64,000 nucleotides of DNA from Anaeromyxobacter sp. (GCA_049840735.1 JASGJN010000026.1:320001-384000), one strand, 5' to 3'; positions 18,793 through 29,520 are shown, counted from the first letter of the stretch. Program-made: numbers and translations. Notes: generated from the sequence alone by a model not told the origin.

Positions 18793-18834
18793 CGCGGCGG
18801 TTGTGGGACGAGGTTCACCGTGCGAGGATGACAC

Positions 18835-21482
18835 GGTGAGTACGTCCACGCGCCGCGCGAGCCCGCCGCTCCTCCACGTCCCCGCCCTGCTCCTCCTGGC
18901 CGCCCTGGGCTGCCAGTCCGCCAGCACCGGCGGCGAGCAGCAGCCGCCCCCGCCCGGCGCCCGGGTGGGCGAGGAGCTGCTCTTCCTGGCCGACGACCTG
19001 GTGGCCGCGGCGGGCGACACGCTGCCCGACCCGCTGCACGCCCGCTACCTCTGGACGTTCGGCGACGACCGCGGGCCAGGGGCAGAGGCCCGGTCCGCCA
19101 CCTACGCCTATGGCAGCCCGGGGACCTTCACCGTCCGCCTCGAGGTGACGCCCGCCACCCACGCCGGCGACGGTGGCACGCCCGCCAACGACGACGACGA
19201 CACCTGGACCTTCGCCGACGCGGACACCCGCGTCTACACGCAGCAGGTGACCGTCACCGGGACCGCGCCGCCCCTGGCCCCGGTGGTGCCCGACGCGCCG
19301 CTGCTGGCGGCGTCCTTCGACGGCAGCCTGGCCTCCACCGGCGCGGCCCTGGCCTGGCGGGACGACGCGCGGGGCGCCTGGGTGAACGGCTACGCCGGCC
19401 AGGGGCTGGACCTCTCCGGCGGCGCCGCCCTGGTGGTGGACCCGGCCACGCTGGTGCAGGGGCGCGGGGAGCTGACCGTCTCCTTCCGCTCGCGGCGCAC
19501 GGCCCTCGACGCCGAGGCGAGCGCGCTGGTCTGGCAAGGGACGGCCAACACCTACCAGCCGGTGATCCGGTTCCTGATCGGCAGCGAGGGCACGACGGAG
19601 CTGCTGCAGCTCTACACGCTCTCCTCGGCCGGGGCCAACACCGCCGCCTTCAACCTGGGGCGCGACCTGGCCTGGCACCACTACGCCTTCACCTACTCGG
19701 CCTCCGCCGGCCGGGCCCGCATCTACCGCGACGGCGCGCTGGTGGCGGAGAAGGCGGTCTCCGGAGCGCTGGCGGCCGGCACCACCCCGCTCCTGCTCGG
19801 CCACGGGGAGGTCCAGACCTCGGCCGGCCTCGGGCAGCACCACTTCCGCGGCGTGGTGGACGACCTGCGCGTCTACGGCCGCGAGCTGTCCGGCGCCGAG
19901 CTCTCCCGCGCCTTCGCGGTGCGCCACGCCGACTTCCACGGCCACGTGGCCCAGCCCATCCTGGTGGAGGTGCCGGACGCGGTGGTGGCGGACGCCGGCG
20001 CGCGGCTGCGGGCCACCGTCTCCGGTGGCGCCCTGGGCTCGCCGCTGGTGCTGCTGGACCAGACCGGGCTCGACGCCACCACGCGCCTGGTGCTGCGCAA
20101 CGCCGAGCTCCCTGGCTCCCCGGCGGACTACGCGCTCCAGGTCGAGGTCCGCGACGGCCAGGGCTCCGTCCTGTTCACGCAGCGCGAGCCCTTCCGCAAG
20201 ACCCACGACGGCCCGCCGCGGGTGGGCGTGGACGAGAACGGCGCCGTCTGCCTGGACGGCGTCCCCTTCTTCCCGGTGACGCCCTGGGGGCTGAACGACG
20301 CCGACGTGGGACCGTGGGTGGAGGCCGGGTACGTCAACGCCATGTACGGCCAGGGCTTCTGGCCCGGGACCCGCACCGTGGCCGGCTACCAGGCCTACCT
20401 GGACGCCGCCGGGGCGGCCGGCGTGGGCGTGATCGGCCCGGCCAGCTGGGACGGGATGGGAACGTGCTCAACTACGGGACCCCCAGCTACCCGTTCATCC
20501 GCTGCTCGTCGCTGGACGGGCTGCGCGCCTACGTGACCGCGCTCCGGGACCACCCGGCGACGCAGATGTGGCAGTGGATGGACGAGCCGGAGCTGCGCGG
20601 CGCCACCGCCCAGACCGTGCGCAGCTGGACCCGGGCCAGCCACGATCTCGAATCCGCAGCACCTGGTGGCCACCAACTACATGGGCCACCCCTACTCGTA
20701 CACCAACGGTCCGGGCTCCTGGTGGCACCGGGAGCGGCACACCTACGCGCTGGGCTGGAACGACGCCGTGTTCGGCGGCGGGCGAGCCGTCACCGACGTG
20801 GTGGGCGTCGACTACTACCCGCTCGACGGGGTCCGCGCAGGCATCACCGACACCATGCACCGGCTGGGCACCGTGCTCGACACCATCCGCGACGAGAACC
20901 TGGGGCTCCTGCCGGTCTTCTCCTACGTGGAGACGGCGGACGCCGGCAACACCGGCGGGACCGGCCACCCCACGCCCTGGAAGCCCACCCCGGCGCAGCT
21001 GCGGATGATCACCTGGTTCAACGTGGCCCACGAGGCGAAGGGCATCGACTGGTTCCACTACTTCAGCGGCGGGCAGGGCTACTCGACGCCGCCGGAGGAC
21101 CTGGTGGAGCTGGCCACCTTCACACGGCAGATTGGCGAGCTCTCCCCGGCCGTGCTGGGGCCGCGCACCGGCCGCACCGTGACGGTCGCGGCCAGCGGCG
21201 GCGGGCGGGTGGACACGCTCCTGCGCCGGCACCAGGGGCGCTGGCTGCTGATCGCGGTGCGGGTCTCGGAGTTCGCCTACCAGGACGCCACCGCCACCAC
21301 GCCGCCGCCGCCGGCGCAGCCCGACCCCATCACCGTCCAGCTCTCGATCGACGGGGCGCCCCTCGAGGACGCCGCGGCGGAGGTGTACGAGGAGGGGCGG
21401 ACGGTGCAGGTGTCCGGCGGGACGCTGACCGACACCTTCGCGCCCTACGCCGTGCACATCTACTGGATTCGACGGAGCGTGA
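18835..21482 (+). CDS. PKD + LamG-like + putative glycoside hydrolase barrel lipoprotein; apparent frameshifts at ~20460, ~20651 and ~21468
   Basis: Lipobox AALGC; YLWTFGD PKD; WHHYAFTY...FRGVVDDLRVY LamG; LDGVPFFP, WQWMDEP and GVDYYP; three track ORFs join into one protein. Confidence 0.7.
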
Positions 21483-21501
21483 CGGCGACGCCCCGGGCCT
21501 G

Positions 21502-22317
21502 CTACTGCCCCGTCAGGCTCCCGCCGTCCCCGCGCCCCTCGATCACGTCGGTCAGCCGCCGCACGAAGTAGGGGGCCACCGTCACGGCGAAGTCGTGATC
21601 CGGGTGGCTGTCGCCGGCCGAGTAGGCGTCGTTGAGGTACAGCCCCTCGGTCGAGCCGGCGGTCTCCAGCGCGCGGAAGTCCCAGACGAAGATGTTGTCC
21701 CCCGCCACGTCCCAGGTGCCCTTCACCCAGTCGGCGAAGGCCTGCGCGCGCAGCGCGTGTTCGCGGCTGGTCTCGCCCTGCTTGCGCGCCGAGCCGGTCC
21801 AGACCAGGAACTTCTTCTGCGGGAAGGCGTGCAGCCGCGTCTTGAGCGCCGCGTACTGCAGCTTGTAGTTGGGCAGGGTCTTCTCCGCGCTGCTCACCGA
21901 GGCGGTGCCGTCCGGCGCCACGTCGCTCACCGGGAAGCAGTGCTTGAAGACGATCACGTCGTAGAGCGCGGCCAGGTCGTCCAGGTTGAGCTCCTGGCGG
22001 TCGCGGCTCGAGCCGGTGTGGGCCACCCACAGGTTCCAGTAGTCGTAGGGGTAGTTGTCCCAGGGGTAGCCGTTGGCGGTGAGCGGGTAGTCCCGCTGCT
22101 CGATGGTGTAGCTGGTCCCGTGGGCGCCGTTGTACGCGGTCAGCAGGTCGGCCACGCCGCCGCCCCAGACCACGCCCCCGGTGCTGTGGTGCAGGTAGCC
22201 GACGCGCGCCGCGCCGGGCGGGGTGACGACGTCGGAGGAGCCCGCGCCGGCGGAGCAGCTCGCGGCCAGCAGGGCGAGCGCGGTCGGGAGGGCGAGGCTC
22301 GGGCGGAGGGCGCGCAT
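21502..22317 (-). CDS. Hypothetical lipoprotein (SGNH-like fold possible)
   Basis: Lipobox LAASC; LHHSTG, YDVIVFKHCFP and DSHP motifs. Confidence 0.7.
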   Translation of the reverse strand: MRALRPSLALPTALALLAASCSAGAGSSDVVTPPGAARVGYLHHSTGGVVWGGGVADLLTAYNGAHGTSYTIEQRDYPLTANGYPWDNYPYDYWNLWVAHTGSSRDRQELNLDDLAALYDVIVFKHCFPVSDVAPDGTASVSSAEKTLPNYKLQYAALKTRLHAFPQKKFLVWTGSARKQGETSREHALRAQAFADWVKGTWDVAGDNIFVWDFRALETAGSTEGLYLNDAYSAGDSHPDHDFAVTVAPYFVRRLTDVIEGRGDGGSLTGQ

Positions 22318-24787: not shown

Positions 24788-25083
24788 TACGCCGCGCTCT
24801 TCGAGGCGGGGCAGCCGGCGCAGCAGTCGGACTTCGCGCCGCCGCCGCCGTCGGACGCCTTCTTCTCGCCGGCCTTCTCACCGTTGCCGGTGATGGCGGC
24901 GGGGTTCTTGCCGCCGTAGTCGGTGATGTAGAAGCCCGAGCCCTTGAAGGCGAAGCCGGCCGCCGAGATCAGCTTCTTGACCGGCGAGCCGCACACGTCG
25001 TGCAACTCGAGCGCCGGGGCGGACATCTTCTGCAGGGCGTCGAACCGCCCGCACTTGGGGCACTCGTACTCGTAGATGGGCAT
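24787..25083 (-). CDS. FmdB family zinc-ribbon protein
   Basis: MPIYEYECPKCG...FKGSGFYITDY. Confidence 0.9.
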   Translation of the reverse strand: MPIYEYECPKCGRFDALQKMSAPALELHDVCGSPVKKLISAAGFAFKGSGFYITDYGGKNPAAITGNGEKAGEKKASDGGGGAKSDCCAGCPASKSAA

Positions 25084-25242
25084 ACTCGTGCGACCTCTCT
25101 GCTCAGCAAACCTAAAATCCGGCGCCGCCCTGTCAAGCGGCCGCGCCCTCGCAGCGGCCGCCGCGGGACGCCCGGGCGCGTGCTAAGTAGGCGTCGTCCC
25201 GGAACATCCCCGGGCGGGGCGGACGAAGGGAAGGGATTTAGC

Positions 25243-26625
25243 ATGTCGCGGGCCGAGCTGGAAACGGTGCCACTCGAGATCGACACGCTGGTGGAGGCGC
25301 TGGATCAGGAGCGCGCGCGGTCGATCGCCGGGGTGGAGAGCGACCCAGGGCTCGTACGGCTGTATGCCGCCCACTCCAGGGTGGCCCACCGCCAGACGGT
25401 GACCGACCTGCGCGAGGCCGGGCAGGCGGCGCTGGCCGCCCGGGTGGCGGCGCTGCGGGCGGAGCGCGCCGCGGCCGAGCACGAGGAGCGCTGGCGGGCG
25501 CTGGAGGCGGCGGCGCACCAGCCGGGGCCGGACGGCGACGCGCCGCTGGCCGCGCTGGAGCTGGCGGTGCTGCGCGAGCCGGACCGGACCCGCCGGCTGG
25601 CGCTGGCGCGGGCCGCGGCGGACGCGCTGGAGCCGGCCGCGGCGGCGCGCGAGGCGGCGGTGGAGGCGCGCGCCCGGGCCGGCGCCGAGGTGGGCCTGGC
25701 GCCGGACTGGCGGGCGGTGGTGGAGGGCGACCAGCTGCTCGCGGCCAGCGACGACGCCTGGCGCGAGGTGCTCGGCTTCCGCGCCCGCCACGACCTGGGG
25801 CTGGCGCCGTCGCCGGGCGGGGACCTCACCCGCGGCGACCTGCTCTTCCTGCTGACGCTCTCGCGCTGGGACGGGCTGTTCCGCCCGGCGGCGCTGCGGG
25901 CCGCCGTCCACGCCACCGTCACCGCGCTGGGGCTGGACCTCTCCCGCCTCCGCATCGACGAGGGGACGCGCCCGGCGCAGTGGCCGGGGGTGCACGTGGT
26001 GGGCGCGCGGGTGGCCTGGCGCCCGCGGGGCGGGGCCGGGGACTGGCAGGACCTGCTGGCCGGCCTGCCGCGCGCGCTGGCCGCGACCCATGCCTCGCCG
26101 CACCGGCGCGAGCCGCTGCTGGGCCACGCGCTGGGGTGGCTGGTGGAGTCGCTGCTGCTCGAGCCGCGCTGGCTGGCGGACCACGCCGGCGTGGAGCGCA
26201 AGGTGGCGCCGGACCTGATCCGCGACCTGGCGCTGCGGCGCCTGTTCACGCTGCGTGCGCGGGCGGCCGCCTTCCGGATCGCGACCGAGGTGGAGCGCGG
26301 GCTCTCCGGCGCCGCCTGGCGCGAGGCCTACCGCGAGGCGCTCACCGCCGCCACCGGCGCGGCCTGGGAGGGCGTGCGCGCCGCGCGCGACGCGGACGGC
26401 GCGGCGCACGCCGCGGCGCTGGCCGGGGCGGGCGCCGGCGAAGCGCTCCGCCTGGCGGTGCGCGAGCAGCTGGACGAGGACTGGTGGCGCAACCCGCGGA
26501 CCGCCGCGTTCCTGGCCGGCCTGCTGGCCGGCGGCGCGCTGCCGGACCCTGAAGCCGGCGCGCCGCGCGAGCCGGCGCTGGCGGCGCAGGCCCTCGCGGC
26601 GAGGCTGGAGGGGAGCGCTCGCTAA
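25243..26625 (+). CDS. Hypothetical protein, probably a degenerate M3/oligoendopeptidase-like fold
   Basis: DEDWWRNPR motif and GG..DW..LL segment without HExxH; stop TAA formed at the element junction. Confidence 0.6.
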   Translation: MSRAELETVPLEIDTLVEALDQERARSIAGVESDPGLVRLYAAHSRVAHRQTVTDLREAGQAALAARVAALRAERAAAEHEERWRALEAAAHQPGPDGDAPLAALELAVLREPDRTRRLALARAAADALEPAAAAREAAVEARARAGAEVGLAPDWRAVVEGDQLLAASDDAWREVLGFRARHDLGLAPSPGGDLTRGDLLFLLTLSRWDGLFRPAALRAAVHATVTALGLDLSRLRIDEGTRPAQWPGVHVVGARVAWRPRGGAGDWQDLLAGLPRALAATHASPHRREPLLGHALGWLVESLLLEPRWLADHAGVERKVAPDLIRDLALRRLFTLRARAAAFRIATEVERGLSGAAWREAYREALTAATGAAWEGVRAARDADGAAHAAALAGAGAGEALRLAVREQLDEDWWRNPRTAAFLAGLLAGGALPDPEAGAPREPALAAQALAARLEGSAR

Positions 26626-28606
26626 GAGTTGTCCCACAATTCGCCAATCGGCGAAGCGTGGGCCGGGTCGGTTCGCCATCGGGCCCGCTCGGGCGTGGTC
26701 TGGCCGGAGCCAGCCTCATCCCGGGTTGGGCCCGTGGCCGTGCCGACGATTCGCCGAGCCACCGGTTTGCTTGCCGGTGTGGACGTCCGCCATGCGAAGG
26801 ACGGCTCGCGGGCGAAGAGGTCGGTTGACTCGGACCGGACGTCTTGCCGCCCGGGACAGCGAGGATCAAGAAGGTTTCCGATGGCGGCGCGGGCCTGCCG
26901 GGTGGCGTCGTAGTCGACGCGCGCCGTGGCTGGCTCGCCGGGCCGATCGAGGACGAGGAAGGCGCCGAGGACCGCGGAGACGGCGTCCCTGTCCCCTTCC
27001 AGCCCGCAGCGAGGGCAGCGGTGGACCCGGTCGGCGAGCGACTTCTCGACCCGGACGCCGCAGGGGCAGTGCTGGGAGAGGGCGGTGGTCTGCGTGGGGA
27101 TCCTGACCACGCCGCCAACGTTGCCAGCGACGGTTGCGGTGGCACGCGCCTCCCGGTCGATAGCCGCGAGCAGCGTCCCCGGCGTGAACGTGGCCACCCC
27201 GCGCCCCCAGGTGCGCGCCCAGGCGGTGATGGTCACGTCCTCGACGGCGAGCTGATAGCCGTGAGTGCGTACCACCTCGGCGGCGACCTGCCGGGCCCGG
27301 TCGCGCCGGGCCTGCGTCCACGACGACGCAGCGGCAGCCTGCTCAGCCCGGAGGAAGCGGTAGCGCTTCGAGAGCGTGTCCCGCCGGTAGGCCTGAAGCG
27401 GGACGCCGTCCGACCGCGCCAGCCGCGGGCCTCCAGGGATCACCTCGACCGGCGTGAGGCCGGCGGCGGCCCGCCGGCGGGCGCGCTTCTCCTGGCGCCT
27501 GGAGAGCCGGTACTGGGCCCGGTTCGCGGCCCGGCGCGACCGCTCCAGGGCCCGCTGCCTGCGCCGCTCACGGCGACTGCGGCCTCGGTCCCGCGCCTTG
27601 GCCTGACCGTCTAGCTCCACCCTGGTGAGCCGCAGGTCGCCCCCAGCCACCTGGGAGGCGATGGTCAGGTTGGACACGTTGACGTCTATCCCCGCCACGC
27701 GCTCCGCCTCGTCGTTGGCCGCAGCTTCCCGCCGTGCCTGCGCCGAAGGCGAGACGTACGGCTGGGCGAGGACCATCAGATGCGCCTCGTACCGCCAGCC
27801 ACCGGGCGCATGAGGCGACCGCGTACGCACCAGGTCGACCTTGTGCCAGCGGGCCGGGTCGGCCAGGTGATGGTCGAGGATGGGCTGGTTGCACGGCGCG
27901 GTGGGGAGGCGAACCGGCAGGACCAGGGCGCCTCCGGGGAGGCCGCTGAAGAGACCAGCGCCAGAGGCCCCTGATAGGACCACCAGTCAACGCGCCGATC
28001 GGCGGCCCCCGGGACCTGGAGGTGCCGCGGCTGGACGAAGTCGCCGCCGGGCCTGGTGTACCTGCCCCGGTGGCCTGCGAGGGAGCCGTGGAGCCGAAAG
28101 GTCTCCCATTTCCGCTCCCGGGTGTGTGACCGGGCCCGGCCAGGAAGCCGTGAGAAGTCGAACCAGCGCCCGACGCGGAGAAGTCCCTGCCGCTTGCCTT
28201 TCGCGTCCGGGAACAGGTGGCGCTCCACCGGCGTCCAGACCGAGTCGGCGAGGTGCATCGCCAGCGCCTTGGTGACGTTCCGGCGGAGGTGGGGCGCCGC
28301 GTCGAGGTGCGCGTAGGCCGCCTGCTCCAGCGCCTCGCGCGAGAGGCCGAGCCTGGCCCGGGTCTCGGAGGCGCTCCGGGCCCGCGCCTTCGTCGCCGCC
28401 CAGTAGGCCCGCACCCGGTCCCGCGCCGTCCGCTGGAGCGCGCGCCGGACCTGGTAGGCCCCGGAGAAGATACCTTCGAGCCGTCGTCGCTGCACCGGGT
28501 CGTGGAGGTCCAGGGCGAGCCGGAGCACCGACACCCCGTCCTCGCGCCGGCGGATCCAAGGCCGCTGCCGGTTCGGACCACGGGTTCGCTTGGCAGAGGC
28601 GCTCAC
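26622..28606 (-). CDS. tnpB: Large TnpB-like RuvC/zinc-ribbon nuclease (~660 aa); apparent frameshift at ~27951
   Basis: RuvC-I VAGIDVN, Arg-rich helix, RuvC-II LAVED, SQHCPCG..HRCPRCG zinc ribbon, RuvC-III DRDAVSA; N-half in ORF 27776..28753 joins at GPLALV|FSGLPGG. Confidence 0.85.
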
Positions 28607-28940
28607 CCGCTCATCGTGAACCCATGCCCTGACATCTTGTTCAGTGAGGGTTGGCTTCCGCCGGTGGCCCGGGAAACGAGGCCACCGTGTTGTCCTCGCC
28701 GATGGCGGATACCGGGGAGTCCTGGGTCTTCGTATCCCGGTCTTCCGCCACAACCGGGTCGTCCGCGACGCCGCCTGGCGCCGTCACCGCAAACAGCGCG
28801 CCCGGGTCGAGCACGTCCTCGCTCGCCTCAAAGACTGGCGCGTCCTCCGGGACCACCGGCGGCGGGGGCGACACCTCGGATCCACGGTCGCCGCCGTGGC
28901 CTTCCTCTACAACCTCAAGCTCGAATTTCGGGACAGCTCC
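26625..28940. mobile_element. Non-autonomous IS5-family-derived element carrying a large TnpB-like nuclease
   Basis: TIRs AGAGTTGTCCCACAATTCG (26625-26643) and CGAATTTCGGGACAGCTCC (28922-28940), 15/19 inverted identity; flanking TA at 26623-24 and 28941-42. Confidence 0.8.
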
Positions 28941-28943
28941 TAG
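28644..28943 (+). pseudogene. C-terminal fragment of an IS5-family DDE transposase (DDE_Tnp_4, Harbinger-like)
   Basis: VLADGGYRG, HRKQRARVEHVLARLKDWRVLRD and AFLYNL motifs; runs through the right TIR; N-terminal half absent. Confidence 0.8.
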
Positions 28944-29284
28944 CTCTTCTTCCGCAGCGCCCGGAGGATCTTCTCCTTCGTGCGGGAGGGCTGCGGGGCG
29001 GCGCGGCGCGCGACCGGCGCCGGGGCGGCCTCGGCCTGCGCCTCGCGGCGGCGCAGGAAGGCCTCGATCTCGTAGGAGAGCAGCTCGATCTCGAGGTCGC
29101 TGCGGGGCGGCGCGGCCCGCTCCAGCGGCGCCGCGCGCGGCAGCGCAGCGCCCAGGCGCATGCGCATCACGCGCTCCTCGTCCGCGGCCAGCTCCCGGAC
29201 CGGACCGCGCCGGAGCGCGGCCTGGGCGGCTGCCTCCGTCACGACCGCGGTGGTCCCCGTCTTCTTCGTCTGCATGGTCCACAT
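28940..29284 (-). CDS. Hypothetical protein
   Basis: Host-like ORF (EERVMRMRLG...KEKILRALRKKS); stop at the element junction. Confidence 0.7.
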   Translation of the reverse strand: MWTMQTKKTGTTAVVTEAAAQAALRRGPVRELAADEERVMRMRLGAALPRAAPLERAAPPRSDLEIELLSYEIEAFLRRREAQAEAAPAPVARRAAPQPSRTKEKILRALRKKS

Positions 29285-29520
29285 GGTAGGGGCCAGGGCT
29301 GACCTGTCCATTTTTCGCCGGCCCGCGACCGCGTCCCGCCCGGGCGGCCAAGCGCCCGTCCGGCAAGGGCTTTCCGTCTCACCCGGCCGGCGGCGATATC
29401 ACACACCCGTCCCCGGCCGATGTCTTGCGGGGCGGCTCGTCGGCGGTAAGGCTCCAGGGCGGCGGGGCCCGCCTGGCAGCGCGGCTGCCGGGCCGCGCAC
29501 CGCGGCGGGAGGCGCGATCC

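Follow-up and report, generated by a model that had tools for sequence, protein, structure and literature searches.

The window, as we call the whole 64,000-nucleotide stretch of Anaeromyxobacter sp. DNA analysed here, carries on its minus strand a large tnpB gene that shares an IS5-type transposon with the remains of a DDE transposase gene (Table 1). The tnpB span, from a GTG at 28606 to a TAG at 26624-26622, is 1,985 nt long (660 codons, a stop codon and 2 nt) and is made up by two overlapping minus-strand frames together. A preliminary description of this DNA had recognized a TnpB-like gene of ~660 aa with three RuvC acidic residues, and this is borne out, as the triad and the C4 finger are intact: the D of GIDVN (27686-27684), the E of LAVED (27242-27240) and the D of DRDAVSA (26987-26985) are in place, as is the zinc ribbon, with the first Cys of CPCG at 27068 and that of CPRCG at 27017. 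The Arg-rich segment described between RuvC-I and RuvC-II is evident in C20, an intact paralog named after its contig in the same genome, where Arg and Lys make up 30% of residues 331-447 compared with 10-19% in five other segments. The feature had been delimited as 26622..28606, which covers the gene but stops short of 28644-28943, where the remnant of the transposase and the right-hand inverted end lie.

Table 1. Positions of the tnpB gene, the transposon around it and the predicted RNA in the window
Feature	Position	Strand	Remarks
Whole element, 2,316 bp	26625..28940	.	IS5-type transposon with internal deletion; carries tnpB
Terminal inverted repeat, omega-RNA side (AGAGTTGTCCC...)	26625..26642	+	Inverted-repeat pair
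Terminal inverted repeat, transposase side (GGAGCTGTCCC...)	28923..28940	-	Inverted-repeat pair
TA target-site duplication, left	26623..26624	+	On the minus strand, part of the tnpB stop TAG and last pseudoknot base
TA target-site duplication, right	28941..28942	+	Provides the transposase stop TAG (28941-28943)
IS5-family DDE transposase, 3' remnant	28644..28943	+	Divergent from tnpB; 5' two thirds deleted
tnpB gene	26622..28606	-	660 codons if read through; WED/REC, RuvC, C4 finger
tnpB landmarks	27686; 27242; 27068-27006; 26987	-	RuvC-I D; RuvC-II E; C4 finger; RuvC-III D
TCTC with 2 extra frame-shifting bases	27951..27954	-	Either an assembly error or a genuine lesion
Predicted omega-RNA scaffold, about 230 nt	26624..26853	-	Overlaps the last ~77 codons; from covariation
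Predicted guide region in flanking host DNA	26603..26623	-	From the scaffold end and OMEGA anatomy as outlined in part of PMC10691335

The element and its insertion site

The boundaries of the element are backed by five more copies or pieces in the genome with the same ends and by the lengths of its homologs, full-length relatives being about 2.75-2.83 kb. It is flanked as CTA|element|TAG, i.e. by a CTAG target with the TA duplicated. The transposase remnant matches Pfam DDE_Tnp_1 (E 4.6e-06) and also DDE_Tnp_4, and is 68-81% identical to many of the homolog transposases. The short terminal inverted repeats (TIRs) and short target-site duplication (TSD) are traits of the IS5 family. By the family definition outlined in part of PMC13565253, IS200/IS605 and IS607 elements have a Y1 or serine TnpA and neither TIRs nor a TSD, whereas this element has TIRs, a TA duplication and a DDE partner.

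The host genes on either side adjoin without the element in nine of 19 loci of relatives, an empty syntenic site. Two host genes, 25081-26624 (+) and 28941-29311 (-), converge on the CTAG, in which their stop codons would overlap, so that neither was cut by the insertion. Neither gene has a Pfam match; the 123-aa flanking gene was matched in 27 of 31 genomes searched. Insertion at stop codons was dropped as a rule, being clear in the window and mixed at three other copies.

The reading frame and its break

The window tnpB keeps 107 of the 108 residues that are invariant in a 50-sequence alignment, the sole missing residue being the break itself. The triad (D306/E454/D539) and the four Cys are invariant in 50 close homologs and in 22 mixed close and distant ones, the triad down to about 30% identity, and both RuvC D residues are present in 99 of the 104 loci in which both motifs were located. 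Differences between the window and C20 cores fall mostly on third codon positions (49/42/125 by position over 579 codons), from which the tnpB core is judged to be under protein selection. By profile, the C-terminal half matches Pfam Cas12f1-like_TNB, as well as NCBIfam guided_TnpB below its cut-off; intact C20 passes Pfam PF07282 (26.9 against a cut-off of 26.3) and misses the curated cut-off of NCBIfam NF040570 (39 bits against 100). The nearest protein clusters in the atlas are of the zinc-ribbon/TnpB type. In a profile comparison with one canonical TnpB, only 104 columns (RuvC-II to III) align, and insertions are thus not mappable by sequence.

A scan of 28560-28960 found neither a sigma-70 promoter nor a terminator. 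A TGTCA..(11-13 nt)..TAGGAT/TAAAGT-like motif recurs a few bases ahead of the GTG in the window (28636-28612, minus strand) and in homologs; it is perhaps the tnpB promoter, and it overlaps the transposase start.

The extra TC that had been named as the only break lies in GGTCTCTTC at 27954-27951 and is lacking in C20. Contigs from one DNA run (share 0.05) are without the 2 bases; as they come from relatives about 87% alike, they do not settle the matter for the window strain. A complete relative supplied 166 ORFs from 400 kb; with 83 of them as queries, 8 of 52 host orthologs, over 20,200 aa, switched frame, two of these at 90% identity. This corresponds to a roughly one-in-four chance for any 660-codon gene, and frameshifts throughout the assembly therefore need caution. 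Broken copies are also common among homologs, 14 of 35 being off frame in the C-terminal part. We consider the chances of an assembly error and of a real lesion about even. Elsewhere in the window, a long secreted-looking gene at 18803-21571 (+) appears to be split over three frames (ORFs 18803-20536, 20314- and 20666-21571), in line with assembly indel errors. The earlier suggestion that the effector is probably active fits the family and C20; for the window copy it hinges on whether the TC is real.

Fold and size of the protein

In an AlphaFold model of C20 (mean pLDDT 74), residues 581-660 score under 50 (about 30). The ~120-aa tail reported after RuvC-III thus stands in part: residues 540-580 are folded in the model, while residues 581-660 are disordered and lie over the RNA scaffold. 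Neither does 660 aa hold as the folded size, because disorder and overlap with the omega-RNA scaffold take up the final ~77 codons, so that folded protein accounts for the "oversize" only in part. In the model it amounts to ~580 aa, still large and TnpB/Cas12f-like. A structural comparison with TnpB, Cas12f and Fanzor, which had been proposed as a check, recovered WED/REC and a RuvC fold, the best matches extending over residues 22-558. TnpB, Fanzor2 and Cas12f matched with Z 13.9-12.5, rmsd 4.7-5.7 and 352-387 residues aligned, among them ISFba1 TnpB (Z 13.9, rmsd 5.1, 367 aligned), the TnpB of 8h1j (Z 13.3, rmsd 5.7, 352 aligned) and Fanzor2 (Z 12.9, rmsd 4.7, 376 aligned); Cas12m2 gave Z 11.3, rmsd 6.4 and 418 aligned. 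About 170 residues of the 23-558 span are without alignment to ISFba1 TnpB, and the folded part is accordingly truly enlarged. Judging from secondary structure, the extra mass in the model probably sits partly between REC and WED, partly in the Arg-rich segment that separates RuvC-I from RuvC-II. With the conserved triad, a TnpB/Cas12f fold and an omega-RNA-like module, the assignment to a divergent OMEGA-type TnpB is supported.

A conserved RNA structure at the element's end

Judged by covariation, the 3' 230 nt of the element is a conserved RNA structure closed by a pseudoknot. In an alignment of 33 ends, changes on both sides affect 28 of the 51 predicted pairs, a number reached in none of 500 shuffles and compared with 6-10 in slid controls, and the window strand of the region folds at z -3.9. 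The scaffold would start near 26853, at about codon 584, where disorder of the protein begins, and over the last 76 codons the differences from C20 are few and even (4/6/3 by codon position). No Rfam family matched the scaffold.

In the pseudoknot, the AAGA loop of the first hairpin (26845-26842) would pair with a terminal UCUU (26627-26624) consisting of the element's final three bases followed by the first base of the duplication, a T. It replaces a small terminal hairpin (helix 9) proposed by RNAalifold and is 100% paired in the 33 sequences. Over 117 loci the pairing is AAGA/UCUU in 80, AAGG/CCUU in 29, wobble in 2 and an A-C mismatch in 4, with 2 mis-anchored; the AAGG/CCUU form occurs in myxobacterial and actinomycete loci, 25 of the 29 being related actinomycetes. 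A terminal pseudoknot is required for ISXfa1 TnpB, according to part of PMC10711439. A T is constant at the RNA-side end in 69 of 71 loci, the other two being mis-pairings. Self-avoidance was dropped as the cause of this T, since the pseudoknot accounts for it and the T is no independent proof of self-avoidance.

The reading frame also crosses the scaffold. In 21 of 35 loci it is kept as far as the TAG in the flank, and scaffold lengths are multiples of three in 85 of 111, across 15 different lengths, counts that the ranking of loci by full-length match may bias slightly.

The family and its transposase

Out of 8,000 candidates scored, 980 proteins matched, and 235 representatives at 50% identity reach E 1e-30. 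Named loci are mostly from Myxococcota MAGs, the closest being Anaeromyxobacter and kin, and from actinomycetes; within the host's order, 7 of 301 genomes matched. No viral contig was confirmed among 37 candidates. We surveyed 160 loci, the best 80 of 104 genome matches and the best 80 of 147 metagenome matches, duplicates and close kin included. For transposase scoring, 23 of these were set aside (too little upstream DNA or a 5'-truncated match), leaving 137. A divergent transposase was found at 100 of the 137, on the opposite strand in every one, and 26 of the 37 loci without it are actinomycete solo copies. Loci L054-L089 (Dactylosporangium and kin) hold multicopy solo elements that are about 2.1 kb long and differ in their TIRs, but have CTA|...|TAG flanks as well and a pseudoknot with compensating changes.

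Intact homolog transposases are about 245 aa; five carry HTH_Tnp_4 and DDE_Tnp_4, and the acidic residues are conserved in 38-40 of 40. Their best NCBIfam model is IS5 NF033581, at 37-53 bits far below the cut-off of 140. Judging by the Pfam pair, the element may be ISL2-like. Distances between TnpBs and between transposases correlate over 40 pairs (Spearman 0.82; 0 of 2000 permutations). Eight supported splits are common to both trees, and 9 of 21 supported TnpB splits conflict with a supported transposase split, so that co-descent is not strict. The trees are best read as the record of a lasting partnership, blurred by exchange or by noise in the trees.

Both ends could be paired in 71 loci, and in 70 of these the left TA is preceded by C; that search required TAG on the right, but without this constraint TAG followed the right end in all 35 ends picked from 63 loci. 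The flanks have only CTAG in common, with no conservation beyond. Comparison of the loci thus identifies a CTAG target, a TA duplication and a ~245-aa DDE transposase head-to-head with tnpB.

Other copies in the host genome

Besides the window copy, the genome holds C20, which is near full length, 88% identical to the window tnpB and one open frame throughout; C16, C22 and C13, which are internally deleted; and C2, which is rearranged. The window and C16 copies have the same two transposase deletions relative to C22, indicating that a transposase-less form was moved in trans. One homolog query found no intact transposase in the 94%-complete assembly. At C13:617631-618177 (L007), a 547-bp derivative retains the whole predicted omega-RNA and both ends, with no tnpB, and is possibly a stand-alone guide-RNA element. 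The rearranged copy, at C2:52611-53329 (L006), lies near a tRNA-Lys gene, at a distance of about 250 bp, and has a flank similar to the 5' part of this tRNA, which gives the only match to CTA plus seed among the six copies; for the other five, no self-target of CTA plus a 12-nt seed was present.

Discussion

We think it likely that a two-gene cut-and-paste transposon of the IS5 family (ISL2-like), here present as a non-autonomous copy, carries as its passenger a large TnpB OMEGA nuclease capable of flank-guided homing. Under this scenario, the tnpB transcript would run through the inverted repeat into the flank and, as for known TnpBs, be processed to an omega-RNA with flanking host DNA as the guide. 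The ribonucleoprotein would then cut the empty allele, CTA|G-flank, and recombination from an occupied copy would restore the element at the cut site (restorative homing), while the occupied site, TTA|G-flank, would be spared by one base. The processing, the guide taken from the flank, the cut at the empty site and its repair follow known TnpBs as described in parts of PMC10278001 and PMC10055086; the predicted TAM (about 5'-CTA) and the guide start derive from the flanks. The window copy itself has lost its transposase and was moved in trans. Its tnpB either suffered a recent frameshift or is misassembled, and its RNA could still serve the intact C20 paralog. What a homing nuclease would gain the transposon is doubtful, because cut-and-paste excision itself leaves a break (PMC13565253).

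A broader reading, which we hold tentatively and which may well prove wrong, is that TSD-completed IS5-TnpB elements are an uncatalogued, long-lived group with a ~580-aa GC-adapted nuclease, a CTA TAM and one-base discrimination between empty and occupied sites, a bacterial parallel to Fanzor capture. If so, CTAG would supply the stops of both genes and the last pair of the omega-RNA pseudoknot, and tnpB would be kept in frame through the scaffold.

The same element and RNA could also serve a protein that binds its target without cutting dsDNA, as in Cas12m, its Arg-rich RuvC insertion clamping the DNA and the complex regulating transposition or neighbouring genes. Cas12m2 is reportedly a DNA-binding repressor subtype. 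In Foldseek it ranks first by E-value (8e-10), UnCas12m4a is the only sequence match in the PDB (E 0.76), and the Arg and Lys content between RuvC-I and II would suit such a clamp. However, the UnCas12m4a match is not significant, Cas12f and TnpB stand above Cas12m2 by TM-score, the Z scores likewise favour TnpB/Cas12f, and the triad is invariant across distant homologs. We consider this binder unlikely.

It is more improbable still that the ribonucleoprotein mainly steers its partner DDE transposase to RNA-matched sites, for guided insertion or re-insertion at the donor. The long, tight pairing with one transposase lineage, and large conserved insertions that could serve as an interface, would fit such guidance, but the flanks share nothing beyond CTAG, the nuclease triad is kept, and actinomycetes have many solo copies whose ends follow the same logic. 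An immobilised intermediate between TnpB and a CRISPR Cas12 effector, a step at which the preliminary description had hinted, is very improbable. The ~580-aa folded part would agree with it, as would weak PADLOC matches to Cas12f/Cas12u2, confined to RuvC-II to III. Against it, none of the 160 loci has a CRISPR-like array (eight were checked a second way), nor has the window by a simple 3-repeat detector, as had been reported for the window; the family is a mobile, multicopy transposon passenger, and its omega-RNA scaffold is single-piece. That an ordinary IS605/IS607-type tnpB came to lie within an IS5 copy by chance, as the broken window transposase might suggest, is scarcely credible given the head-to-head layout and about 2.77-kb length constant across phyla, and a scaffold that base-pairs with the IS5-type end.

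Comparison with known systems

The homing nuclease proposed above resembles known systems. Altae-Tran et al. (2023, PMC10691335) described six DDE-associated TnpB branches, DDE-1 to DDE-6, with inverted repeats and solo copies, whose partners are named as ISL2, IS630 and IS1031 in PMC13565253; ISL2 and IS1031 are IS5-family groups (PMC12730594). Like those branches, the present element has TnpB beside a DDE transposase within inverted terminal repeats, a tnpB 3' end at most 250 bp from the element end, and solo copies moved in trans. In the text of PMC10691335 used for comparison, none of DDE-1 to DDE-6 is given a size of ~660 aa, a divergent layout, a CTAG target or a pseudoknot completed by the TSD, and no test of activity is mentioned; DDE-5 has a TA motif 8 bp upstream of its end, unlike the window element. 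A pairing of TnpB with an IS5-family DDE transposase was thus already published in 2023, while activity of such a partnership appears untested in the literature found. Our searches, which included few subscription papers, found neither a large clade nor a tested bacterial DDE-borne TnpB; the supplements of PMC10691335 may list the clade.

With the TnpBs of IS200/IS605 and IS607 (ISDra2, ISFba1, ISXfa1) the protein shares the WED/REC/RuvC/zinc-finger fold and the D-E-D triad, and the element shares a 3' structured RNA with a terminal pseudoknot (PMC10711439, in part). Those proteins are about 400 aa with a ~150-nt RNA, by the part of PMC13454183 used, compared with ~580 folded aa and ~230 nt here; no Y1 or serine TnpA partner is seen, TIRs and a TSD being present instead. 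As for Fanzor1 and Fanzor2 of eukaryotic cut-and-paste transposons, the scaffold includes the TIR and target-site duplication (portions of PMC10711439 and PMC13565253). Unlike Fanzor, the protein is bacterial, with 12% identity, and the likeness is taken as a parallel, not as demonstrated kinship.

Why cut-and-paste transposons keep an RNA-guided nuclease is an open question according to passages of PMC13565253 and PMC10711439. The family makes it testable, since intact elements with both genes are numerous, their ends and target are defined, and both an RNA with a pseudoknot and a sharply delimited TAM are predicted. It may also yield a nuclease with a short TAM that is native to myxobacteria and actinomycetes of high GC content. 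Whereas C20 and some relatives are intact, the copy in the window is a damaged derivative. In size the protein is near Cas12m (about 600 aa), and its fold class is that of Cas12m and Cas12f, from which it differs in being transposon-borne, with no CRISPR array and no significant sequence match. The feature is real, and a large TnpB travelling as passenger in an IS5-type transposon describes it better than a proto-Cas12 does.
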